Source: Malacoraja senta
Lineage: Eukaryota
Reading direction: 5' to 3'
Assembly (NCBI GenBank): GCA_038087875.1
Contig: CM075987.1
Span: 25,918,001 to 25,982,000 of the forward strand
DNA length: 64,000 nt
This document shows, in pieces, positions 1 to 47,621 of this stretch. The notes beneath the pieces are model-generated. The model was not told where the DNA came from and did no database searches. It saw nothing but the letters and a program-made list of their open reading frames with translations. A program made the translations under genes and the position numbers. The stretch's first letter is position 1. Each line of letters starts with the position of its first letter.

Positions 1-138
1 TATTCTTAAACTGTGGCCCCTGGTTCTGGAATCTGGTATCTTTCCTATAACATGGTGCCCAGAACTGAACACAATATTCTAAATGCGGTAATGGGCTAAC
101 TTTGCATGGCACTTCAAGCACCAGTGGAGTAAGTTCAT

Positions 139-338
139 NNNNNNNNNNNNNNNNNNNNNNNNNNNNNNNNNNNNNNNNNNNNNNNNNNNNNNNNNNNNNN
201 NNNNNNNNNNNNNNNNNNNNNNNNNNNNNNNNNNNNNNNNNNNNNNNNNNNNNNNNNNNNNNNNNNNNNNNNNNNNNNNNNNNNNNNNNNNNNNNNNNNN
301 NNNNNNNNNNNNNNNNNNNNNNNNNNNNNNNNNNNNNN
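139..338. other. Assembly gap (200 N)
   Basis: Run of N bases. Confidence 0.99.
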
Positions 339-626
339 GTTGAGGCTGGGACAATCCCAACATTTAAGACCCAATCCTTCTCTCCAGAGATCCTGCCTGT
401 CCCACTCAGTTACTCCAGTATTTTGTGTCTACCAACATTTAAGAAACAGACAGGTACATGGATAGGACAGGTTTGGAGGGATATGGACCAAACGTGGCCA
501 GGTGGGACTAGTGTAGCTGGGACATGTTGGCCGGTGTGGGCAAGTTGACTTGATGTCAACTCTTTTTCTCCCTCCAAACTTTTAGCAAGCCTTTACCACA
601 ACCCCTTACGCCAATTAGTTGCTTAC

Positions 627-736
627 CGATTAGTAACCAAATGTTGATTGAAGCTCAAACCCATTTTGTTACAATTGGTAGACGTTTCTCTTACACCTTT
701 CTTCTCCCCACTTGAATGAGAACACAAGGAAGTCAC
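627..736 (-). other. Candidate exon (110 nt) of an unidentified minus-strand transcript
   Basis: Minus strand: TTTTTTTTTTAAATCAG| acceptor and CG|GTAAGC donor in unique sequence; no recognised product. Confidence 0.3.
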
Positions 737-1119
737 CTGATTTAAAAAAAAAATGACAGGAGCCCATGAGAAAGATTCATTAGTATTTTAGTTTTGTGTG
801 GAGATACAGCAGGGAAAGAGGCCCTTCGGCCCACCGAGTCAACACCGGCCAGTGCACTAACACCACCCTACACACACGAGGGACAATTCTTTTTTTTTAC
901 ACACTTATACCAAGCCATTTAACCTACAAACCTGTACGTCTTTGGAGTGTGGGAAGAAACTGAAGATCTCGGAGAAAATCCACGCGGTCACGGGGAGAAC
1001 GTGCAAACTCCGTACAGACAGCACCCGTAAGGCAGCAACTCTACCACTGCGCCACCGTGCCGCCCTTAGAAGGATGTGGCCAAGAACTCAGAGGACCAAC
1101 CATGGGGAAATATGTAAGA

Positions 1120-1346
1120 CAAGGGTTCCACAACCTGGGGTAAACTTACCCCTAGGGGTAAATTTCACCTACCCAGGGGGTAAATTTGTTGATTCTGGAT
1201 ATGTACATATTTTTTTCTTATTGACTGACTGTGTTTGGTTCTGGTATACCGGCATCATTAGTTGTTCATAAATAAGTGAAATAACATTGTTATGTGCTAT
1301 TAAAGTGGCCAGTGGTAAACGGGACGAAAAAGGTTGGGAACCCCTG
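1120..1346. mobile_element. hAT (Charlie-like) non-autonomous DNA transposon
   Basis: TIRs CAAGGGTTCCACAACCT / AGGTTGGGAACCCCTG; 8-bp TSD atgtaaga (1112-1119) / aggtaaga (1347-1354). Confidence 0.8.
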
Positions 1347-1385
1347 AGGTAAGACACACCAGGTAAATTAGGAAACAGGACTCAC

Positions 1386-1398
1386 TTAACTGAAAAAC
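1386..1398 (-). other. Candidate 13-nt microexon
   Basis: Minus strand: TTTTCTTTTCGCTCCCGTTTTGCAG|GTTTTTCAGTTAA|GTGAGT. Confidence 0.3.
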
Positions 1399-1924
1399 CT
1401 GCAAAACGGGAGCGAAAAGAAAACTAAGGGATTACCCCAGTGTGAAATGTTAGAAAATAATGGACTGTGCTATTTTGGAATAGTTTAATAAATCTCAAAT
1501 ATCGCCATAAATGTAATGAACGGATGGTGTTTGAGTCTGTTGGACATATGATAGAGGCCAAGATATCCAGTTTCTTCCCATATTCCGAAGACGTGGAAGT
1601 TGGTAGGTTAATTGACCTCTGTAAATTGTCCTTTGTGTGTAGGATAGAACTGGTGACGGCAAGTTGCCAACTTTGGGTAAATTTATCTCAATTACATCGC
1701 AGTAGAGATTGGTGGATGTTTGCCGAGTGTTTGATTCTGGGGCCCTCGACTGTCAAAACTGTTCAAACTTCATCCCGGCCCAGGACTGATGCCCTCTGGT
1801 AAATGCAGAAGGACAGCAAGAGGGGGGAGTTTAGTATTACTTTCGGTTAGTTTGGAGATACAGCGTGGAAACAGGCACTTCGGCCCACGCCGACCAGCAA
1901 TCACCCCGTTTACTAGTTCTATCC

Positions 1925-2307
1925 ATGTAGGAAGGAACTGCAGATGCTGGTTTAAACCGAAGATAGATACAAAAAGCTGGAGTAACTCAGCGGGTCAGGC
2001 AGCATCTCTCGCTCCGTCCTCCCCCTTGCCTAGTCATTGTGCCAGTTTTACCGTCATCCTGGTGAGTCTCATTGTCTGTCACTCTTTTTCACCTAGCCCA
2101 CAGCCTGTTTCCTTTACCATCATTACTTTTTTGCATATCTTTCATTCATATGTTCTATATCTCTCTACATCACCGTCGATATCTCACATTTCCCTCTCCC
2201 CTGACTCTCCGTCTGAAGAAGGGTCTCGACCCGAAACGTCACCTATTCCTTTTCTCCAGAGATGCTGCCTGTCCCGTTGAGTTACTCCAGCTCTTTGTGT
2301 CTATCGC
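1925..2307 (+). mobile_element. Penelope-like 3' fragment with inverted 5' segment and hammerhead-like motif, inserted in a SINE
   Basis: Matches 3' end of the GIY-YIG element at 56290-57032; CTGAAGA..GAAACGTC at 2213-2240; 12-bp flanking duplication ctagttctatcc. Confidence 0.75.
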
Positions 2308-2606
2308 TAGTTCTATCCTACGCAGGAAGTACAATTTGCAGAGGTCAATTAGCCTACAAACCTCCACGTCTTCGGAATATGGGAAGAAACTGGAGCACCC
2401 GGAGGAAACCCACGCAGGTCACGGGGAGAACGTTCAAATTACACACAGACAGCACCCGTGGTCAGGATCGAACCCGGGTCTCTGGCGCTGTGAGGCAGCA
2501 ACTCTACCGCTGCGCCACTGTGCCACCCCGGAGTTGATAGATTGAGTTGGCAGTGTTATTGAAGGTTAGTTATTCTGAGAGCAGGCTTGCCTGAGATTAG
2601 GCTGAC

Positions 2607-2693
2607 CTGGATTCTCCAAGCGTTTGATGGGGAGTTTCTGGAGTGGCTGATCTGACCCAGAAATGACCACATTCCACTCCGGATAATAACACT
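2607..2693 (-). other. Candidate exon (87 nt)
   Basis: Minus strand TTTATTTTCCAG| acceptor; CAG|GTCAGC donor (alternative CAG|GCAAGC 16 nt further); two reading frames open. Confidence 0.3.
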
Positions 2694-2917
2694 CTGGAAA
2701 ATAAAATGTTTTTCAGAGCCACCCTGATAAAAAAAATAGCACAACCCTTTTACATTTTCTAGGACGGCAGCTTTTTCTTAAAGGTAAAGTGTAGTCAGGG
2801 ACCAAACTATTCTGATCTTGCTTACTGTAATTTTAAATCAAACCTTAGTTTTGTTTAGAGACACAGCGTGGAAACAGGCCCTCCGGCCCACGAGTCCCCG
2901 CCGACCAGCAATCCCCG

Positions 2918-3573
2918 TATAATATGATATAACTTTTTCATCCCCTGTTGAAAATTGGTCTGCCAACAGACTCAACACACGGGATGATGGAACTCCGACA
3001 TCAGAACAGAAGAACATCCTTAGCAGCTTGGACTTCTGAATCGGCCACTTCTTACCGGAGACCGCGGCTCCCGAAGTCCACAGGCCGAGCTGGGCGGAGA
3101 TTCAACGCTGGCGGCCCTCGGCAAAGGGATCCCAGGGCGCAGCGATGTTGAAGTCAGCGCCGCCTGCGGCTGAGCTCCGCAAACCACAGCTCCTCGATGT
3201 TGAAGCAGCAGGCCTAACACTCCGGAGCTTCAAACGGCGTTCCCAGGTAGGGCATCGCCCGCTCCGCGATGTCTCCAGCGCTGTGCCGCCGCTGCTGAAG
3301 CTCTGGTCCGGTCCCCGGCAGGAAAGGCTGCGTCAATCCAGTTGGTAGGCCGCGAGGAGGGGGGAGTGGACTCGACTCGGAGAATAGTCGCATCCTCGCC
3401 AGGAAGTGACTGGGAAACGGTTTCCCCCTTACCCCCCCCCCCCCCTCCCCCACATGGAAATACTAAAAAAAATCCTCCAAGACATACTTTTAAACAAACT
3501 AAAAATAAAAATAAGATAGAAAAGCAGACAGACTGTAGGCAGAGGCTGCCATCATGTGGCGCCCCCTAGTGGC
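2918..3573 (-). mobile_element. GC-rich non-autonomous retroposon, Rex/Babar-like 3' tail, CTCF-like motif at 5' end
   Basis: Shares blocks with 5694-6733, 14166-15042, 21414-22160; minus-strand 3' end aatttcaacaggggatgaaaaagttatatc. Confidence 0.6.
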
Positions 3574-6733: not shown

Positions 6734-7814
6734 CCCATACTAACCGTTATTCCCTTTATCCTGTATCTCTGTACACTGCGGACGGTTTGGTTATAATCAT
6801 GTATCTACAGTCTCTTCGCTGGTTGGATAGCATGCTGCAGAAAGGCTGTTCACTACACCTCAGTACATGTGACAATAAACTAAACTAAACTAAAATGCAG
6901 TTTGGAAGAGATTTTAGCCCTAACGCTGCACAATCAGTCCCCATCGGGTTTGGAATGTGAAATGGTTCTTATCTAAGATGTTAGGGATAAAGGAACCGAC
7001 TTGTAGGAGCTGGCTTGTAAGACATAGACAATACAGCACAGGAACAGGCCCTTCAGCCCACAATGTCCGTGCTGGACATGACGCCAAGTTAAATTATTCT
7101 TCTCTGCCTGCACGTGATTTATAACCCTCCATTCCTTGCCTATCCACGTGCCGATATAAAAGCCTGCTCAATGCCACTATCGTATCTGCTTCCATCACCA
7201 CCACTGGCCGCGTACTCCAAGCACTCACCACTCCCTGTGTAAAAAAACCCTCCAATGTAGAATTGATGTAGGTGGCAATCTTCATGTCCATAACTTCTAG
7301 GAGCAGAATTAGGCCATGCGGCCCCTCAAGTCAATTCCGCCATTCAAAATCATGGCTGTGCTATCTTCCTCTCTTAACCCCATTCTCCTGCCTTCTCCCC
7401 ATAACCCCTGACACCCGCACTAATCAAGAATCTATCTATCTCTGCCTTTAAAATATCCATTGATGGCCTCCACAGACTTCTGTGGCAAATAATTCCACAG
7501 GTTCACCAGAAATTCCTCATCTCCTTCCTAGTGGAACATCCTTTAATTCTGAGGCTGTGACCTCTGGCCCTAGACTCTCCCACCACATGGAAATGACAGG
7601 AACAACTAATGCAGGTTGTCACCCAGTACAAGTGCGATGTTAGCCAATGGTCAACTGCAGCGTACAACACACTGTTACTGATGTGATGTGCAGCAAGATA
7701 GACTCTAAATGCTGGCGTAACTCAACGGGTCAGGCAGCATCTCTGGAGAATAGGAAGAGGTGACGTTTCAGGTCGAGAACCTTCTTCAGACTCAGACTTC
7801 AGACTAGTCCACAT

Positions 7815-8138: not shown

Positions 8139-8520
8139 GATGAAGGGTATTAGTTTAGCAACCTCCTCCCGCAGTTCTTTCTTGAACATTTTGTCTGCGC
8201 CACTGCGAAATCTCCTCAAGGTATGTCTACTTCGAAGAAGTCCTCCTCCTCTTTCCGAAGACAGTTTAGCGACCTCCTCTCTGCAATTCTTTCTTAAACA
8301 AGGGTCAATACTCGAAATGTCACCTGTTCAGTTTCTCTAGAGGTGAGGGCAGACATTGGCCAGATTCAGAATCATTACATGGGTCAGAAGGGATTATTGG
8401 AAGAAGCATGCAAAAATAGAAAGAGAAGGTAATGAATGAGAGGGATGCTACCAATGAAAACATCTAAACAGGGAGAGGAATCCCTCTGTGTGAGAGAGAG
8501 GGAGTGTGTATAATGTGCAG

Positions 8521-8625
8521 CCTGATGCTTTGATTTGTGTGGCTTCTATGTATGAGAAGCGAAGGCAGGGAAAATCAGGGCTCCACTTCACATGCATAGA
8601 TGCCACACAAAATCAAAGCACCAGG
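8521..8625. repeat. Imperfect inverted repeat (about 46-bp arms, short loop) in unique DNA
   Basis: cctgatgctttgatttgtgtggcttctatgtatgagaag pairs with cttcacatgcatagatgccacacaaaatcaaagcaccagg. Confidence 0.8.
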
Positions 8626-9974
8626 TGCCGTATAACACACACAGGCTCCTTCTCGCGCTCAGTGTTGAAGACTTTCTCTCCCTGTCAAGGTATTGCATTG
8701 GTAACACTGATTAGTTACTTTCTGTTTGGATCTGCGACAGGACTTCAGAGTCACGGTGCTGAAACAAATATACATGTTGTTTGTACAACTGACTGACACA
8801 GGAACAGATTGTTCCCTTAAGGCAGCGAGGCCGTTGATAAGAGATGTACTCACTCACCTTCCCAACAAAGCGCATTCAATCTCAAGGCGTAGATAGACAC
8901 AAAATACTGGAGTAACTCAGCGGGACAGGCAGCATCTCTGGAGAGAAGGAACGGGTGACGTTTCGGGTCGAGACCCTTCTTCAGACTGAGATCTCAAGGC
9001 GTATATGGGTGAATTTCTGGCAGTATTGTGGCAAATGCATTTCAGGGTCTGTGACAATGGCCGATAATTTCAAGGTATTGCCAATAATTGTAACTGATTG
9101 GCCGGCGCGGTGGCGCAGCGGTAGAGCTGGTGCCTTACAGCGCCAGAGACCCGGGTTCGATCCTGACCACCGGAGCTGACTGTATGGAGTTTGTATGTTC
9201 TCCCATTGACCTGCGTGGGTTTTCTCCGGGAGCTCTGGTTTCCTCCCACACCCCAAAGACGTACAGGTTTGTTGGTTAATTGTCTTTGGTGAAATTGTAA
9301 ATTGTCCCTAGTGTGTGTAGGATAGTGCTGGTGTATGGGGATGGCTAGTCGGTACGGACTCGGTGGGCCTGTTTCCACCCTGTATCTCTCAACTAAACCA
9401 AACGAAACACGTTGCTTGTACAGCTGACTGACACAGGAATACTTTTGTGGTAGAAATACCTATGATAATAAATGTACCCACCCACCTGTAGAACAAGGTC
9501 AAGACTGTATGGGTGACGTTCTGTCAGCACTGCGGCAAAGTACTCCAAAGACGTACAGGTTTGTAGGTTGATATAAGTGTAAAATTGGCCCTAGTATGTG
9601 TAGGTTAGTGTTAGTGTGCGGGGATCGCTGGTCGGTGCAGACTCAGTTGTCTGAAGGGCCTGTTTCCGCACTGTATCTCTAAACATAACTAAACTAAATT
9701 AAATGTATTGCATGGTCTATGGCATGGGCCAATAATTGCAAATAAATGTCAATAATAGTCACTGACTACTATGCACAGTCTAAGTGATTAGTCAAGGATT
9801 GGTTTGGAAGTTCGTTTGGAAGGATGAATTCTTACTTTAAAACACTGAAACACAAATATGCTGAAATTTCAAAAAATTGGCTCATTGTGAGACATTCTTT
9901 CAGAACTCAGCTTGTGACTATGGAGTTCATTTCTATGTTTACACAAAAAATTGATTCCTAACATTAACTACAAT

Positions 9975-10115
9975 ATCTTCTTCTTGCGTGTGGCGTGCAC
10001 AGCCTAAAGTTGTAGGACAACTTGTTCTATTCGATCTTATTTGATTGTGCACGCCAGGTTGATTGCATTCGTCGAAACAGGGCGGACCACGTGAAGGTTG
10101 CAATCTCCCACCCCC
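9975..10115 (-). mobile_element. Short non-autonomous retroposon, probably Vingi/ingi-dependent
   Basis: 9-bp TSD AACTACAAT (9966-9974, 10116-10124); minus-strand 3' end ctgtgcacgccacacgcAAGAAGAAGA; no Pol III boxes. Confidence 0.75.
10061..10114 (-). ncRNA. Minimal HDV/CPEB3-like self-cleaving ribozyme (predicted)
   Basis: P1 GGGGUGG/CCGCCCU with G1.U wobble, P2 GAUUGCA/UGCAAUC, P3 ACC/GGU, L3 UUCACGU, J4/2 CGAA. Confidence 0.8.
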
Positions 10116-12835
10116 AACTACAATTTAACAGATCATTTTTAATGTCAGTGTTCCAAAACCTTGTTCTGGCTGCACTTCACACCCACCACCCTCATCTTTG
10201 GACACCCTGTGCGTAGGGGAGAGGGTAGGGCTGAAGATGTCTCCTGGGCCTGGCCAAGGCGGAAGAGGGCTCCGGCTGGCTGCCTGCCCCTTTTTTCCGG
10301 GGTTACGTCCGCGCCTCGGTGGTGTTAGAGAGGGACTACCCGCTGTCTACGGGAGCTCTGGGGGATTTCCGGGACCGCTGGGCACCGCGGGGGTGGAACG
10401 CACCCATAACAAGGATGGGGAAATAATAATTGAAGAATATTTGGTTTAACTTGTGCTATGGTGATAAGTTCCATTTGAATCATTTAGTATTGTACATATT
10501 ATTGTAAATAATTGAATCAATTCTTTTTGGTTAAAACATTTTTTTAAAATTATAAAATAAAATTTGAATTTCACATTGTCCTGAAGGCAGTTCCTAAATG
10601 AAGATTCCTCCATCGTCAATCTCCACATGTGGAAACCTACTGAAGTATTTAATCTCTCAGTACACCAAGCCGATCTGCCATCTGCTACTAATTAAATATT
10701 AACAAATATGTTGTTAAAAAAAAAAGCCATGATCTTCATTATTAACTAGCTGGTCTGAAAAATGATCTGGAAGCTCAGGAGATCCTTTGATAAATGACGG
10801 CATGGTGGCACGGTGGCGCAGCGGTGGAGTTGCTGCCTCACAGCCCCAGAGTCCAGGGTTTGATCCTGACTATGGATGCTGTCTCTACGGAGTTTGCACG
10901 TTCTCCCCCTGACCTGCGTGGGTTTTCTCCCGTGATATTCGGTTTCCTCCCACACTCCAAAGATGCACAGGTTTGTAGGTTAATTGGCTTGGTATAAATG
11001 TAAATTGTCCCTAGTGTGTGTGAGACAGTGTTAGTGTGCGGGGATCGCTGGTCGGCGCGGATTTGGTGTTTCCGCGCTGTATCTCTAAACTAAATAAACC
11101 AAACAAAGTCTAAAGAAGGGTCTCGACACGAAACGTCACCCATTCCTTCTCCCCAGAGATGCTGCCTGTCCCACTGAGTTACTCCAGCATTTTGTGTGTA
11201 CCTACAAACTAAACAAAGTGCTGGAGTAACTCAACGGGTCAGGCAGCATCTCTGGAGAACATGGATAGGTGACGTTTTGGGTGGGGACCCTTCACTGTAT
11301 TGAGATGGGATTGAGAGGGTTGTAAACTGGAAGGGAATCACCCCAAAGACCTAGGCAAGCCACACGTTATCCTAACTCGAATGCATCTGGCCAATCTTTC
11401 ATAGTTGCAAAGCTACCATTGTGATAGTGGCTTCGGCGCATGCACTGCAAAGCATCATGAGAAAGCCTGACCATTAATTTCCCAAATTGCTAATGGGTTG
11501 GATGGTAAATTCTGTCTGTGGTATCAATGGCAGCATTCCCTAAGAGTGAATCTTTAATTTAGTATTAGTTTAGTTTAGAGATACAGCACAAAAACTGGCC
11601 CTTTGGCCCATCAAGGCCGCAACAAGCAGCGATCCCCACACATTAACACTGTCCTACATACACCGGGGGACAATTTTACATTCATACCAAGCCAATTAAT
11701 CTACAAACCTGTGCGTCTTTGGAGTGTGGGAGGAAACCGAAGATCCTGGAGAAAACCCACGCAGGTCACGGGGAGAACGCACAAACTCCGTACAGTCAAG
11801 CACCCGTAGCCAGGATCTCGGTCGCAGTAAGGCTGCAGCTCTACTGCTGCACCTCCGTGCCACCCATTGTATTAGATTAGAAAAATGAGGAAAGAATCTT
11901 TGGAAAACAAACTGGTATTCCAAAATGAAAACTTCTCAGCCGCAAACATTATTTCTGTTTACATGCAATTATCTTTTGTTTGTTACTCTGAACAAAAGAA
12001 GACCAGTTGTGATCGGCACGATGAATAATAAAGCAGCCAATAACATTAGCCTTCTTTACAGGCCGAGGTTTTAACTGCATTCCATTAGTGTACTGAACTC
12101 GACCAGCCACCTCGGTAAAAAAAAAAAGAAAATTACATATTGATTTATTCGTCCTAAGTCGCTTTGTTAAGGCTTCATGATTTTTGAGGCCATGAACAGG
12201 CCTGTGTGATTTATCCAAAAGTCTCTGTGGAATTAACTTATTTACTCAAGAAATGCTTGCCCTGCCTCTTGTGAATTGAAGAACCTATGTTGCGTAGTCA
12301 GTCGTCGTTATTATAGATCATGATTTCAGAGTCTGAATGGATTTGGACAAACAAGTCGTGACTGCATGGCAACAATAATTGTTGAACACGTTTCAAGTTA
12401 TCAACTTTCCCCGTGTCACTAAATTACATTTCCAGTCATTTTTCTAGCTCCGTGCATCAATTAAGCTAATACAACAGATTAGAAAAGAGTAGGCTTCAAT
12501 ATTTACTTATTGTATGTTTTAATGGGGCATTGAAGTTTCAATGGCATGAACTGAATCTCAATGACTCTGTGCTCATTTATACAGATTCATTAACTCAACC
12601 ACTCAACACTTTCTCCTCCTTGACCTGCCTGTGCTTGACTTTCTGTTCCGGCTTTTGTTGAAATTTGCACATTTCTTTTGCATTTAGCTACGCAACAATC
12701 AGCAGGGCCTTCATACAAATATTAACAAATAAAATCACAGTGGATGTTAGATTTGAGAGCAGAGGGATAATGATGGGGCACCTGATAATGATGAGGGGGG
12801 GGGGGGCCTCATTGCAACGTACCGAACAGTGCAAG

Positions 12836-28683: not shown

Positions 28684-29674
28684 TTAAACAATAGCAACAG
28701 CACTCAATATTGAGTTGGCAAACAGCCCTCCATCGGCAATCGGCCGATGGTAGTATTGCTGAAACACAAGTTCATTTTGCCACCCTGCGGCTTTTAATAT
28801 ATGGTCGATGGGAACGTCCATTGCCCTGGCCGCCGATGTTGCTGCTGCCCTAGTGGAATGAGATGTAAACACATCAGTGTTAATTCCTGCCTGAACCAAC
28901 ACTTGCTTTAACCACCTTGAGATAATCTGAACTGCCACTCTTTTATGTGGCTTCTTGTAACTGACAAATAATCCTGTTTCTTCATGTCTTAAAGCCCTTG
29001 TGGCCTCAATGTAATGTAACCAATGTGTCCTTACTCATAAACATGGATCTGTAGGATATGCTGAGAACACAATCTTAAATCCTGTCACACCTGGCCTGCT
29101 TTGTTTGAGCAGGTCATAAATATAAAACATAACATTCTCTATAGTCACTTCCATTCTATCTAACTGAAGTTTTTGCAAAGTCTGCACTCTCTGTGCTGAA
29201 ACCAATGCCATTAGCATAGCCAACTTTCATGGTTAATTTTGACAAAGTCATAGACGTGACAGGGACCCAATGACGAAGCATGTTAAGAACAACACTTACA
29301 TCCCAGATAACCATATACCTAGGCTTAGGCGGTTTGGAATTAAAGATTCCTTTCATCAACCTAGATATGAGAGGGTGAGAACCTATACTTTGTGTCCGTG
29401 TACCTATTGCAAGATATGCGGACAAAACACTTCTAGCTGTATTGATAGCACTATAGCTAAGACCCTCATCATAATAAAGTGTGGATAAAAACTCTAACAC
29501 ATTTTCAATAACTACAGTATCATATTGAATATTCTTTCCAACACAATATTGTTCCCATTTTTTTACATAAGTCATATACTGCTGTTGAGTACTCTTTCTC
29601 CAGGCTGCAGTGAGCATATCCACCGTTCGCCTAGAAAGTCCTCGACCCATGTAAGGCCTTCTTAAAACTTGCAA
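28684..29674 (-). pseudogene. DIRS tyrosine recombinase, disrupted
   Basis: AQRVQ, SHSTRAAATS, ILKAAGW, QYYHRP catalytic motifs across several ORF pieces. Confidence 0.9.
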
Positions 29675-30947
29675 ATTAACAGATCAATACGATCACATAA
29701 CGGATGAACTTCACGCGTTACCGGATGCTCCAGCAAATTCCTACTCTTTGGAATCAGCAAAGGAGGTTGGATCGCTATCTGTAACATCAAAGGGAACCAT
29801 GGTTGAGTTGGCCAATTTGGTATCACCAAAACCCCTGAAGCGGCATCCTGCTTGATTTTTTTTTATTTTTTTAATCATCGACCTATGAGAAAGAATGGTG
29901 GGAAAATGTACACAAACATATTACCCCAATTTAATGAAAAAGCGTCAATTGCCACTGCCCCTGGATCTGGTTCCCATGAAACATATTTTGGCTGCTGGTG
30001 GTTAAGCCTGGATGCAAACAAATCGATATCTGGCATTCCATATAGAAGTACTATGTTCTTGAACACATCCTGGTTCAACATCCACTCTGTATTATCACAG
30101 AATTTTAGTGACCTGGCATCTGCTACTACATTAGGTGTCCCTGGCAGATGGATAGCTGAAATCCAAATATCTCTATCCATACACCAGGTCCAAATTTGAT
30201 TTGCCAACCTGTCACATGATAACGATTTGATTCCACCCATGTGATTAATATAAGCAACTGCTGTAGTGTTGTCTATTTGGCACTGCACATGCAAGCTAGT
30301 TTTGTTAGTGCAATAAGCCTGGATCCATAAATACTCCTAAAAACTCTAAATGGTTAATTCCCCATGTTTGCAGAAGCAATGACTCTTGCTCAGTCCATCT
30401 GCCTCCACAGCTGGATCTCGTATCAGTAGCACCCCACCCAAGTGCATTGACATCTGTCTGCAAAATCATGGAAGCTTGGTCCAATAACACTTTAGAATTA
30501 CTAGTGGACACATGCTGAATCGACCATTGTACATCAGCAACAGCCTCTACTGATAGACGCATAGGCCTGTTATAATGACCCAAATGTATCCTCAGTGCTT
30601 GTTCCTTTGACCTTTGTACTGTTGATAATGAAGTGGCCCGTATTGAACTGCTGGAAATGCTGCCACCAATTTCCCAAGCAGGCTAGCCACCTGTCTAATT
30701 GAAGGCTGTGTGTCAGCAATCAACTTGATACAGCTCTCAATTAGCTCTACCCTTTTTTGCCTGGGCAAGGTCACAATCATGTTGATTGAGTCTATTTTGA
30801 ACCCAAATAGTCAATTTGTGTCACAGGTGTTAATTTAGATTTCTCTGGATGGATTATGAAGCCCACACTTTGAAAAGTGGTTTTAACAACTGCCACTGAT
30901 GCTTCAACTGTTTCCTTTGATTGTCCTACAATCAATATATCATCTAG
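29662..30947 (-). pseudogene. DIRS pol C-terminal part: RNase H and adenine-methyltransferase-like domain, frameshifted
   Basis: LQTDVNALGWG, INHLE, IDNTTAVAYINHMGG, HLPGTPNVVAD (RNase H); DIDLFASRLN and YIFPPF (MT). Confidence 0.88.
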
Positions 30948-32776
30948 TTAAGCCATGAGCACATGCCCTTGACTTCTCCTCATGCCTAGAATAGGTTTTA
31001 ACAACTTTGTAAAAACTCTAGGAGCTGAAGACAAACCATTAGGCAGTGCATTGTATTGCCATAATTGCCCCATCCAGCTGAATTTTAAATATCTTCTATC
31101 CTGCAAATGAACAGACACTGAATAATACGCATCTTTAAGATCTATAGTTGCCATATAGCATCCTCTGGAAACAAGTTGCTTAGCCGTCACAAACGTTTCC
31201 ATCTTAAAATGTCTATACCGTACAAAAGGGTTAAGACTAGTCAGGTCCAGTATAATTCTGCTTCCCTCATCCTTTTTTGGTCTGGGAAAGATATTGGACA
31301 CAAACTGTTGGCTTTGGTAAACTGCCTTAGCAATTACACCTTTATTACATAAGCTTTCAAGTTCCACCTGAACTTCCAATTGTTCAGTGATACTGAAGTC
31401 AAAACTCCTTTTTGGAACATGTTGCATGGGTAATTCAGAATTTGCATTAAACTCTATTCGAAACCCTTCAATAACATTCAGTATAAACATATCTGAGGTA
31501 ATTTGTTTCCATTCCTCTAAGAACAGATGTAATCTTCCTCCAACTTTTAATTGTATTACTTTAGATCTGTCTACATGAGAACCAGACCCACATACCTCAT
31601 TACAACCTGGCATCCTTCCCCGGCCTCGAGCTGGATATCCCACCTTCCCTGGCGCTGCTACAGCCGAACGCCAAATGCGCTGCATCGTAGCTCGACTTGT
31701 CCCTTGCCCGGACCAGTCTCCTCGCTTATAGGGATACTTCCGCGTCGGTGGATATGTGGCTACTGGCTGCTTAATCAAGCCCACCGTCTTGGCCTCCTCC
31801 TCCAGCTCCTTCACCTGCTTTGCGAAATCCTCGCCAAACAGTAGATTTGCCGGTTGCACTGTGCCAGGCTGGCAGAGTGAAGCATATTTAGGATTGATGG
31901 TTGGTCTTATCGCCGTTTTGCGGAGGCAGTTGATCTCAAAGTGGGCACTACACAATAGCGCCAGCACCTCTTGTTCTAATTTGGTCATGGCCTCTCCATC
32001 CACCATCCTGGCAAAGCTAGTTATGCCTGATCCCAGCAATTTTAAAATATGCTGGAGCTTCACCACCTGGGCTCTCCTTTGTATGCCCATCTGGCCCCAA
32101 ATCATCCTGTTCACAACAGGAACTTTTAACAGGCCACAGTTGATTGGGGCTTCATGCTTCTTTACTGTCTCCTCCATCGTCAGCTCCTGTAGCTGGTGTG
32201 AGATTAAGTAATTAATACTGGTGGCTATTTCCTTACCCAGAGGCTCACCAGCTTCCGACGACTTGGCAAACCGTGCTGCACACAGTGTCAGCTGTGGCAG
32301 CTGCCTGTCCTCCATTTCAAAGTCGTCGTCGGACTCAGGGTCAGAGCTTATCTGCCCTTCTGCACTCACCTCTTGAAAGAGGGTGCTTTCAAGCAGGCCT
32401 CTACCAGGCACTGCCGGCGGAGCCTTCCCCACGGCCTCCCTCCCACACAACTCCTCCTGGAGTGTGGCTTTGTGGAGCAGCCCCTGTATGAGCTGCTCCA
32501 TTTTGGATAACCACTGGGGCACGGTATCCTGTCCCGGACGGGACTCTCCTGGCCCGACTCTGCCGAGTCAATGGACCTAACAGACTTGGCTTTTGCCTTC
32601 CGCCTGACTGGCGTTGGCTGTGTACCCGGCTGGGCACTTGGGAGTGCCAAGTCTGTCGCCGCACCGCTACCGACTTGCGACTCCCCAGAGGTGACAGGCT
32701 GCCTTTCAGAGACTGCGCTCCCGCAGCTCTCTCTCCCCTTTTCCGTTGCACGCCTGCACCTTGTTGATTTGTCCAT
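30948..32776 (-). pseudogene. DIRS Gag plus reverse transcriptase N-terminal half in one frame; nonsense mutation in YLDD
   Basis: VGGRL, RIILDL, HFKMET, TIDLKDAYY, LPNGLSSAPRVFTK; YLDD reads TAA-CTA-GAT-GAT; gag ATG at 32776 is in a shifted frame. Confidence 0.9.
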
Positions 32777-45589: not shown

Positions 45590-45830
45590 CGGCTGCTTCA
45601 TGTTGTCGGCGGCTGCACATCCAACCAAGAAAGAAGAGAAGAGAAGAGATGCGATGTCACTCACAGCCGCCAACTGACGCGCTTCCCCAGACTGCACAGA
45701 TCGCTGTGATGTGGCGCAATAGAGACAAACTGTGCAGGGACTGAAGACAGCGTGAGAATTCTGTCATCAGCGTGAGCATTATCTGAAATGCATGACTCTC
45801 ACGCTCAAAGTGTGAGTGTTGGCAGCCCTG
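45590..45830. mobile_element. Right end of a hAT-like element; related copy at about 47095-47314
   Basis: Both end GTTGGCAGCCCTG and share ggctgcacatccaacca..gacaaactgtgcagggactgaa. Confidence 0.55.
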
Positions 45831-45850
45831 TCTAAGGCCAGGATGTGACA

Positions 45851-45885
45851 ACAGACACACAGGGAGACACATACACAAAGGAAGA

Positions 45886-45934
<49 letters not shown>

Positions 45935-46706
45935 ACGCACACGCACACGCACACCACACGCACACGCACACGCACACGCACACACAGACACGCACACACA
46001 CAGGGAGACACACATACACAGGAAAACACACACACACAAGGAGATACACACACACAGGGAGACACACACACACAGGGAGACACACACACACAGGGAGACA
46101 CCGACACACAGACACACACACACACACACAGGGAGACACACACACACTGGGAGACACACACACACACAGGGAGACACCACACACAGGGAGACACACACAC
46201 ACAGGGAGACACACACACACAGGGAGACACACACAGGGAGACAGACACAACAAGCACACACACACACACAGGGAGACACAGACACACACACACACACAAG
46301 GAGACACACACAAGGAGACAGACACACAAGCACACACACACACACACAGGGAGACACACACACACAGGGAGACACACACACACAGGGAGACACACACACA
46401 CAGGGAGACACACACAGGGAGACAGACACACAAGCACACACACACACACAGGGAGACACAGACACACACACACACACAAGGAGACACACACAAGGAGACA
46501 GACACACAAGCACACACACACACACACAGGGAGACACACACACACACAAGGAGACACACACAAGGAGACAGACACACAAGCACACACACACACACACAGG
46601 GAGACACACACACACACAGGGAGGCACACACACACACAGGGAGACACACACACACAAGGAGACACACACAAGGAGACAGACACACAAGCGCACACACACA
46701 CACACC
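45851..46706. repeat. Complex (CA)n-GGGAGA/AGGAGA satellite with higher-order structure
   Basis: CA runs punctuated by GGGAGA, AAGGAGA and AAGC. Confidence 0.97.
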
Positions 46707-47621
46707 TTTTCTTCCCCCTCCCTCCATCCACCCCTTCCTCCCTCCTGCCCCCATCCTTCCCTCTTTCCTCCCCCTCCCTCTTTCTCCACTTTCTCCTTTC
46801 CTTCCTTCATCCCCTTTCTACATTCCCTCCCCTTGTCTCTCTTTGCCTCCATCCCTCCTTTTTTCCTTTCCCTCTCTCTCTCTCTCTCTCTCTTTCCCCC
46901 CTTCCTCTCTCTCCGGCCGCCCAATGGGGAGTCTGGCGGGCATGGTGTAGCGTGGATTGGCGACGCTGGCGTTGCCGTGTGAGTTGAAGGGCAGGAGGGA
47001 GGGAGGGAGGGAGGGAGGGAGGGAGGAGCGAGGCTGCAGCGGCGGCCGGCAGCGCAGCGCTCACAGCCGGCACATAGAGCTGCTGACACCCGCCCGGCGG
47101 CTGCACATCCAACCAGAGAGAAGAGACGCGACGTCACTCACAGCCGGCAACCGACGCGCTTCCCCAGACCGTGCAGATCCCTGGCACGCGGCGCAAAGGG
47201 ACAAACTGTGCAGGGACTGAACTCAGCGCGAGAACTCGGTCATGAGCGTGAGGGCGTGAGAATTTGCTCCAAGACGTGATTCTCACGATGAAAGCGTGAG
47301 AGTTGGCAGCCCTGATTATGTCCTTTTTTTTTCCTGCAGTCATCCACTCAAGTTCTAGAAACTCATACGTGTAAGACAAAGGATGGACAGATGCATCTTT
47401 CGTGCAGTCTCACTGTCGCACAGAGTCACACCTCTTATTCCTCCACCCAGAACGCTTCTACAATATTAAATTTAAGTTATATAAGAGCTTCCAGGAATCA
47501 AAGTATCCAAAGACCGACAACAGATCGACACAAAATGCCGGAATAACTCAGCGGGACAGGCAGCATCTCTGGAGAGAAGGATAGGTGATGTTTCGGGTCG
47601 AGACCCTTCTTCAGACTGAAT

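Follow-up and report, generated by a model that had tools for sequence, protein, structure and literature searches.

A P4-less CPEB3-type ribozyme domain, predicted to be self-cleaving, at the 5′ end of a high-copy retroposon of Malacoraja senta

Self-cleaving ribozymes like that of hepatitis delta virus (HDV) typically have a G1·U wobble at the cleavage site and a pairing, P1.1, between the loop L3 and the joining segment J1/4. Their catalytic C is reported to be the first position of J4/2 (PMC10879173). HDV-like ribozymes are known at the 5′ ends of long interspersed nuclear elements (LINEs), among them R2, RTE, baggins and L1Tc, and in a few non-autonomous derivatives; the RTEs are reported to lack promoters of their own and to be transcribed from introns or upstream elements (PMC6765202). 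The mammalian CPEB3 ribozyme (RF00622) has been reported to be without relatives outside mammals, and no report of CPEB3-type ribozymes in non-mammalian vertebrate retrotransposons was found in the literature searched (freely available main texts). Forms that lack the P4 helix are known almost only from gut phages: ∼99% of the minimal P4-less forms are reported from bacteriophages, many of them beside tRNAs, where they trim 3′ trailers, and both drz-Mtgn and the gut-phage theta ribozymes show activity in vitro, which is abolished when the C that opens J4/2 is changed to U (PMC10879173). The present report concerns a ∼140-base non-coding element in a 64,000-nucleotide stretch of the genome of Malacoraja senta (assembly GCA_038087875.1, contig CM075987.1, positions 25,918,001 to 25,982,000), termed the window. 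It is probably a promoter-less retroposon headed by a P4-less, CPEB3-type HDV-like ribozyme that cuts 5′ of its first base, G1, and an RTE-like LINE probably supplies the protein that copies it in trans. In this genome ribozymes of the same lineage also stand at the head of an RTE-like LINE and of further short elements.

The window copy lies on the minus strand at 9975-10115. Read from 10114, that strand is GGGGTGG-GA-GATTGCA-ACC-TTCACGT-GGT-CCGCCCT-GT-TTCGA-CGAA-TGCAATC, with its last base at 10061. The features, in 5′ to 3′ order of the minus strand, are as follows.

10116..10124, minus strand: 5′ copy of the target site duplication (TSD), attgtagtt, 9 bp; the same 9 nt occur again at 9966-9974
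10115, minus strand: single extra G separating the TSD from G1; missing in most copies, whose start is GGGGTGG
10061..10114, minus strand: P4-less HDV/CPEB3-type ribozyme domain, 54 nt, with predicted cleavage 5′ of G1 (10114)
10108..10114, minus strand: 5′ strand of P1, GGGGUGG (G1-G7), pairing with CCGCCCU at 10079-10085 over 7 bp
10099..10105, minus strand: 5′ strand of P2, GAUUGCA, pairing with UGCAAUC at 10061-10067 over 7 bp
10086..10098, minus strand: P3, ACC/GGU (10096-10098 with 10086-10088), 3 bp, around L3, UUCACGU (10089-10095)
10072..10078, minus strand: J1/4, GU (10077-10078), then a 5-nt linker, UUCGA, replacing P4
10068..10071, minus strand: J4/2, CGAA, with the putative catalytic C44 at 10071, aligned to the CGAA of the CPEB3 model
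9986..10060, minus strand: 3′ body, 75 nt, ending ...CACACGC; the minimum free energy (MFE) fold retains both of its stems
9975..9985, minus strand: tail (AAG)3-AT, AAGAAGAAGAT, where target-primed reverse transcription is presumably primed; (AAG)n length varies among copies
9966..9974, minus strand: 3′ copy of the TSD, attgtagtt

The helices follow the canonical P1-P2-P3 order, and P1 and P2 cross to form a nested double pseudoknot. P1 contains two wobbles, G1·U36 (10114 with 10079) and U5·G32, and P1.1 is possible in that G37 of J1/4 can pair with C22 of L3. P4 is absent; just UUCGA stands between J1/4 and J4/2. The 3′ body consists of an 11-bp hairpin (10046-10056 with 9991-10001) around a 7-bp hairpin (10017-10023 with 10007-10013). 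A preliminary description, made from the letters of the window, had given this sequence with its coordinates and pairings, the 9-bp TSD with one nucleotide between it and G1, the outer and inner 3′ hairpins, the (AAG)n tail, L3 and CGAA as in CPEB3, and the lack of P4. All of these are present as described, and a script check finds standard pairs at 17 of the 17 proposed positions of P1, P2 and P3. Folded alone with ViennaRNA, the 54 nt give an MFE structure of exactly P1 plus P3 (−12.4 kcal/mol), P2 plus P3 reaching −7.3. The MFE values of 61-nt and 140-nt stretches are no better than those of shuffled sequences (z +1.16 and −1.16), as expected for a pseudoknot, for which such scores are uninformative.

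Among described ribozymes the mammalian CPEB3 ribozyme is similar in the order of its parts (P1-P2-P3-L3-P1′-J1/4-J4/2-P2′), and in both P1 starts with GGGG, ends with CCCU and carries the G1·U wobble. L3 (7/7), J1/4 GU and J4/2 CGAA of the element are identical to the Rfam CPEB3 consensus. The two differ in that the element has 5 nt in place of a P4 hairpin of ∼16-20 nt, in the sequences of P2 and P3, and in genomic setting, a single intronic locus versus many copies at a retroposon 5′ end. With the minimal P4-less ribozymes, to which it is likened by architecture, the element shares an HDV-like core without P4; it differs from them in having a CPEB3-type core and in lying at the 5′ end of a retroposon in a vertebrate genome. 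That genome carries a vertebrate-type telomerase RNA (173 bits, cut-off 70).

An independent covariance model was built from 47 other ribozyme copies of the same genome, with the element excluded and with P2, P3 and P4 nested. Over both strands of the 64-kb window its sole match is 10061-10114 on the minus strand, which spans the full model (29.6 bits; E 3.3e-5 by a rough calibration). It is considered close to certain that the 5′ domain is homologous to ribozymes of the HDV/CPEB3 type. It is barely conceivable that the motif arose by chance in an ordinary RNA polymerase III (Pol III) short interspersed nuclear element (SINE). The non-significant MFE scores agree with such an origin, for which there is no specific support. 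As had been proposed, the element has no Pol III-type head: no tRNA is found in it by ARAGORN, and Rfam gives no match to tRNA, 5S or 7SL, either in the 2 kb around the site at E values up to 10 or in the whole window at gathering score. The element-free model singles out this one place, and the helices covary with those of five other families, as described below.

The element is one of a large family. The genome searched comprises 1.94 Gb in 6,182 contigs. A first look yielded 1,597 candidates, and all 40 of those scored are 94-100% identical to the window copy. A 37-nt core of the ribozyme half occurs at 7,647 places (3,848 + 3,799) at ≤3 mismatches, the reversed control at none. The element with its (AAG)n tail was found at 30 of 30 loci in a first sample and 40 of 40 in a second. 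Flanking sequences differ among the loci of the first sample, and tail lengths vary; the flank exception is locus L002 (G000:C11:25874161-25877319), a duplicate 52 kb away of window positions 8466-11624 that is 99.1% identical over 3.16 kb. The window copy thus sits in a recent segmental duplication.

The 5′ ends of the copies bear on the predicted cleavage site. The first sample of 30 loci is biased, the query having included the extra G of the window copy. An unbiased sample was taken as the first 40 core matches in genome order, which leaves 37 independent loci when three duplicated ones are removed. Exact TSDs of 6-14 bp are present at 33 of the 37. The TSD directly abuts G1, with no extra nucleotide, in 24 of these 33 copies (19 unambiguous, five with 1-nt microhomology), and this implies that in most cases the RNA that served as template had its first base at the predicted cleavage site; with its extra G, the window copy is of a minority type. 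The genome-wide check of copies that the preliminary description had proposed therefore finds most 5′ ends at G1. Dispersed copies, variable TSDs, a simple-repeat tail and lack of coding capacity were each looked for and are all present, and it is as good as certain that the element is a young, high-copy, non-autonomous non-LTR retroposon, a SINE in the broad sense.

Two further properties of the copies were observed. The base preceding G1 is T in 23 of the 33 TSD-bearing copies, and also in most copies of a sister family (family C, below). This T lies inside the TSD and suggests a preference in second-strand cleavage or joining. Some copies carry, in the inner hairpin, an insert of ∼240 nt with inverted-repeat ends (GGGCCTGTCCCAC...). 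It stands in opposite orientations at two loci (L138:1-741 and L139:1-741) and at the same junction at several others, and may be a miniature inverted-repeat transposable element (MITE) with a preferred site, or else may mark a composite subfamily.

The Rfam CPEB3 model, run over the whole genome, gives 60 matches, 39 of them above cut-off and the best at 64.2 bits; matches above cut-off were found in none of 14 control genomes. Fifty of the 60 were retrieved, the 10 lowest-ranked being left out, and these fall into five families, A (12 copies), B (4), C (25), D (5) and E (4), so that there are at least five families besides the element. The sister families A-E meet the Rfam cut-off (39 of the 60 matches), with scores of 35-64 bits, and many of their ribozymes are of full size. 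Example loci, from the set L038-L087, are L040:1501-1573:-, L042:1501-1578:-, L051:301-368:- and L052:311-374:+.

Family A reads GGGGATC-AA-GGTAGAA-GCG-TTCACGT-CGC-GATCCCT-GT-[8-bp P4]-CGAA-TTCTACC and is directly followed by an open reading frame (ORF). Family B has a long P4, and its J4/2 is CTAA. Family D shows few differences from the mammalian CPEB3 consensus over the part compared, one of them a compensated P2 pair. Family C, GGGGTC-AA-GGAAAGA-GCG-TTCACGT-CGC-GGCCCCT-GT-TTCCA-CCAA-TCTTTCC, lacks P4 as the window element does, and the linkers that replace P4 in family C and the element are nearly identical (GTTTCCACCAA vs GTTTCGACGAA; UUCCA vs UUCGA). It is a short retroposon of ∼195 nt with TSDs and a tail ...GATAAGAAGAAG, and has 76 pattern matches in the genome (45 + 31). 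The element had been taken for an unusually small ribozyme form; the absence of P4 holds, but the element is not the sole P4-less form. In families B, D and E, pairs of copies (L092-L097) were observed to share just ∼60-110 nt, that is, at most the ribozyme and ∼30 nt more, the latter usually starting ACCAC; no ORF or common 3′ end was found in these families within 9 kb.

The element and 47 of the 50 retrieved sequences were aligned with MAFFT, no structure being supplied; L048 (rearranged) and L062 and L083 (L3 expression unmatched) were excluded. When P1, P1.1, P2, P3 and P4 are placed on this alignment, 90.5% of cells are standard pairs, versus 35-47% when the 3′ partner is slid by 1-3 columns, and changes on both sides are seen in 18 of the 26 pairs. 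The covariation score is 0.300 (0.03-0.07 when slid, 0.15 when shuffled) and was reached by none of 500 shuffles. When the element is removed, 90.3% of cells remain paired, both partners have changed in 13 of the 26 pairs and the score is 0.280; the number of further pair types is then not above that of shuffles (482/500), and the count of both-side changes is reached by 47 of 500. P1 pairs 5-33, 6-32 and 7-31 covary between families. In P2, 95% of cells are paired and both-side changes occur in six of the seven pairs with the element and in four without it. Since P2 is outside the structure of the Rfam model, this covariation is independent of how the matches were found.

The unpaired core is constant. 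L3 columns T20, T21, C22, C24 and T26 are invariant in the 48 aligned sequences, the remaining two being ≥90% conserved, as is the C44 column, and the P1.1 pair at alignment positions 22-38 reads C-G throughout the 44 distinct rows. Between the element and the LINE copy L040, both bases have changed in eight of the 17 pairs with pairing retained, there is no one-sided change and no broken pair, and 14 of the 15 unpaired core bases agree. In the comparison with the family C copy L071, compensated differences number 10 among the 17 pairs, and 13 of the 15 unpaired core bases agree. The covariation check suggested by the preliminary description thus finds helices that covary with five sister families and a core that is fixed. 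Independent support comes from the way the helices of the other families covary with one another, from the core that does not vary and from where the copies begin. The two P4-less families share the linker, yet P1, P2 and P3 are recoded with full compensation; on the simplest reading P4 would have been lost once, and selection would have gone on acting on the fold. Such selection after the loss would be the main argument that the short form works.

The predicted cleavage is based on homology, covariation and the 5′ ends of copies, and on these sequence data source copies are quite probably catalytically active. According to the proposed mechanism, a copy would be transcribed within a longer host or read-through transcript. 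The double pseudoknot (P1, P1.1, P2, P3 and J4/2 with C44) would cut the RNA just 5′ of G1, and the template would begin exactly at the first base of the element. The protein of a LINE, presumably RTE-like, with apurinic/apyrimidinic endonuclease (APE) and reverse transcriptase (RT) domains, would copy the element RNA in trans; it would nick the target and prime on the (AAG)n tail, leaving TSDs of 6-14 bp. The TSDs, the tails and a terminal motif shared with such a LINE are the observed parts of this mechanism.

Family A is the candidate for that LINE. It is 3.13 kb long, two copies are 97.3% identical over positions 99-3233, and TSDs are present. The ribozyme stands directly after the 5′ TSD and is followed by a single ORF (940 aa in L088) in which Pfam recognizes Exo_endo_phos, Exo_endo_phos_2 and RVT_1, that is, APE and RT; no RNase H match was found in it by Pfam. 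The 3′ end is ...ACACGAAAAGAAGAAGAAG, at greater length ...CAAAGACACGAAAAGAAGAAGAAG, followed by the TSD, and the (AAG)n tail is as in the element, whose own 3′ end is ...CCACACGCAAGAAGAAGA; a cross-species variant of the latter reads ACACGAAAG. Just 14 family A 5′ ends occur in the genome at ≤3 mismatches. Relatives of the ORF, 46-63% identical, are ORFs of ∼950-1000 aa on contigs of ∼3.0-3.4 kb from amphioxus, echinoderms, insects, crustaceans, teleosts and Anolis. A protein cluster search with the LINE ORF gave generic APE and RT clusters and no clade, so that the RTE label here denotes architecture. With that meaning, an RTE-like LINE is a reasonably likely candidate for the partner.

The preliminary description had instead assigned the element to a Vingi-type RT. 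This is very improbable, and it derives from analogy alone, L1Tc/ingi elements being reported to carry HDV-like ribozymes. No Vingi-like element with APE, RT and RNase H that shares the element's ends turned up; the ribozyme-bearing LINE has one APE and RT ORF in 3.1 kb, has no RNase H match and carries the same (AAG)n tail, and its relatives are of similar build. The RT in the window itself was weighed as a possible Vingi partner but does not qualify. It is an ORF within 28684-32567 on the minus strand (RVT_1 at 27.5 bits, just below cut-off), upstream of phage-integrase-domain ORFs on the same strand, and belongs to a DIRS-like tyrosine-recombinase retrotransposon. DIRS1-like elements are reported as undetected in 37 mammals (PMC3266345), and the presence of such an element by itself makes a mammalian host improbable.

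Compared by description with the ribozyme-bearing LINEs R2, RTE, baggins and L1Tc, the ribozyme likewise comes first in the element, where cleavage 5′ of G1 would release the RNA from a co-transcript. The family A LINE fits this description, since it has one APE and RT ORF in 3.1 kb and starts at G1. The window element differs in that it encodes nothing and its ribozyme is without P4. NARTc of Trypanosoma cruzi and the R2 SIDEs, as far as the accounts available describe them, are also short and non-coding, with a LINE-type 5′ ribozyme and a 3′ end used by the LINE RT. They are, however, truncated or internally deleted forms and share long stretches with their LINE. The element, unlike these, has in common with family A only the ribozyme architecture and core bases, the helices being recoded, and ∼9 nt plus the tail, and it is dispersed rather than specific to ribosomal DNA.

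Words of the element were also found in sequencing runs of eight organisms from 11 studies. Four runs were aligned at ≥85% likeness, and read depth is confined to 9976-10115. Ribozyme variants at ≥5% are G8>A in J1/2 (23-46%), G45>A, and G45>U (23-44%), by which J4/2 becomes the CUAA of family B; U36>C, at ∼5%, turns G1·U into G1-C. CpG transitions occur at four ribozyme CpGs, and two of these in P1, G32>A and C31>U, keep pairing. The change C44>U, a loss of the catalytic C, is present at 3-13%, as expected if CpG sites decay in copies that are dead. In the four runs P2, P3 and the 5′ strand of P1 are free of variants at ≥5%. The 3′ body is more variable across species, with 22 variable sites and indels. 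No RNA run was among those listed as containing words of the element; RNA was represented by one raw polyA-selected run with 927 reads, from the same study as one of the element-bearing runs. In this run (X24) the depth over 9976-10114 of pairs with the first mate on the plus strand was observed to be about half that of the minus strand, and the plus-strand depth is, in relative terms, greater in the ribozyme half than in the 3′ body, the other strand being flat.

Several results weigh against the proposed mechanism. The first concern the ribozyme. In 9 of the 33 TSD-bearing copies the TSD is separated from G1 by 1-3 bases, as it is by one base in the window copy. On 86 nt the Rfam CPEB3 model scores 14.2 bits (E 0.12), missing its cut-off of 35; on the F. 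prausnitzii HDV model the score is 14.4 bits against a cut-off of 44, and no HDV-like match at E ≤10 was found by Rfam in the surrounding 2 kb, nor any match in the whole window at gathering score. The Rfam check that had been recommended is thus favourable in one part, both weak matches being in register with G1 = 10114 and the CPEB3 alignment placing L3, CCCUGU and CGAAU on the consensus with P4 deleted, and unfavourable in the score itself. The element was originally picked out for its pairing, and its own compensated pairs are therefore partly so by construction; that the same unpaired core stands in the same register in six families is not. Variable sites other than CpG number 3 of 46 in the ribozyme and 15 of 78 in the body, a marginal difference (Fisher p = 0.066) that does no more than suggest constraint. 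In the RNA run no site has many read starts or ends, G1 included, and 281 reads extend beyond 10114 into unrelated flanks, their strand being unresolved; because of polyA selection, the unresolved strand and multi-copy mapping, this run is a poor test of cleavage. No assay of a P4-less CPEB3-type ribozyme was found in the literature searched.

Some of these points would also suit a ribozyme relic, a LINE-derived 5′ domain inactive since the loss of P4, with the ends at G1 set by a transcription start at an internal promoter, as with Pr77 in L1Tc, or by full-length copying of a master RNA. The first 77 nt of L1Tc are reported to act as both promoter and ribozyme, and the missing cleavage signal in the polyA run, the low CPEB3 score and the extra G at −1 in some copies are all compatible with a relic. 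A relic is nevertheless unlikely. The two P4-less families share the linker (GUUUCGACGAA and GUUUCCACCAA), yet 10 of 17 pairs differ between them, all compensated, while the core is the same at 13 of 15 positions, a pattern implying that the fold was under selection after the loss of P4. In addition C44, L3 and the G1·U wobble are retained, cross-species variants avoid the helices, and other P4-less HDV-like ribozymes are reported to be active in vitro (PMC10879173).

The remaining adverse points concern the partner. The 3′ ends of the element and the family A LINE share only ACACG(C/A)AAGAAGAAG, ∼9 nt, plus the tail. An autonomous LINE sharing both ends, as envisaged in the preliminary description, was sought with IUPAC patterns that required non-element bases beside an exact stretch of the element; these gave 5, 1, 1 and 164 matches (the last at ≤3 mismatches, with four inspected). 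No LINE with the element's 3′ hairpin or exact ribozyme was found, and all inspected pattern matches are deleted, degraded, composite or variant copies of the element.

Elsewhere in the window, four overlapping ORFs of 299-452 aa lie at 45657-47137, on both strands. They match no Pfam family and give low-complexity matches only; the region is probably a compositionally biased repeat and not a gene. Positions 139-338 are a run of 200 N, which is either a gap in the assembly or masked sequence.

LINEs headed by HDV-like ribozymes were known before, and so were P4-less forms, almost all of them in gut phages; the element combines the two in a predicted ribozyme of 54 nt, of CPEB3 type and without P4, that heads a very successful vertebrate retroposon, together with a second P4-less family that provides a natural covariation partner. 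If the short form is active, it would put a lower bound on the size of HDV-like ribozymes that occur naturally in eukaryotes. Activity would also explain spread without a promoter, in that every copy transcribed as part of another RNA could serve as a source, and host pre-mRNAs could be cut by copies, of which there are thousands, that are inserted in sense orientation. It can tentatively be proposed that the 54-nt form is the smallest natural eukaryotic member of its lineage, active enough to account for ∼7,600 copies and for thousands of potential self-cleaving sites in host transcripts, and, as part of the same tentative proposal, that the mammalian CPEB3 ribozyme is an exapted 5′ ribozyme of this RTE-like lineage. 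The wider result may matter more than the element itself: the families described here would supply outgroups, reported to be lacking, for the mammalian CPEB3 ribozyme and would make its origin from a retrotransposon directly testable.

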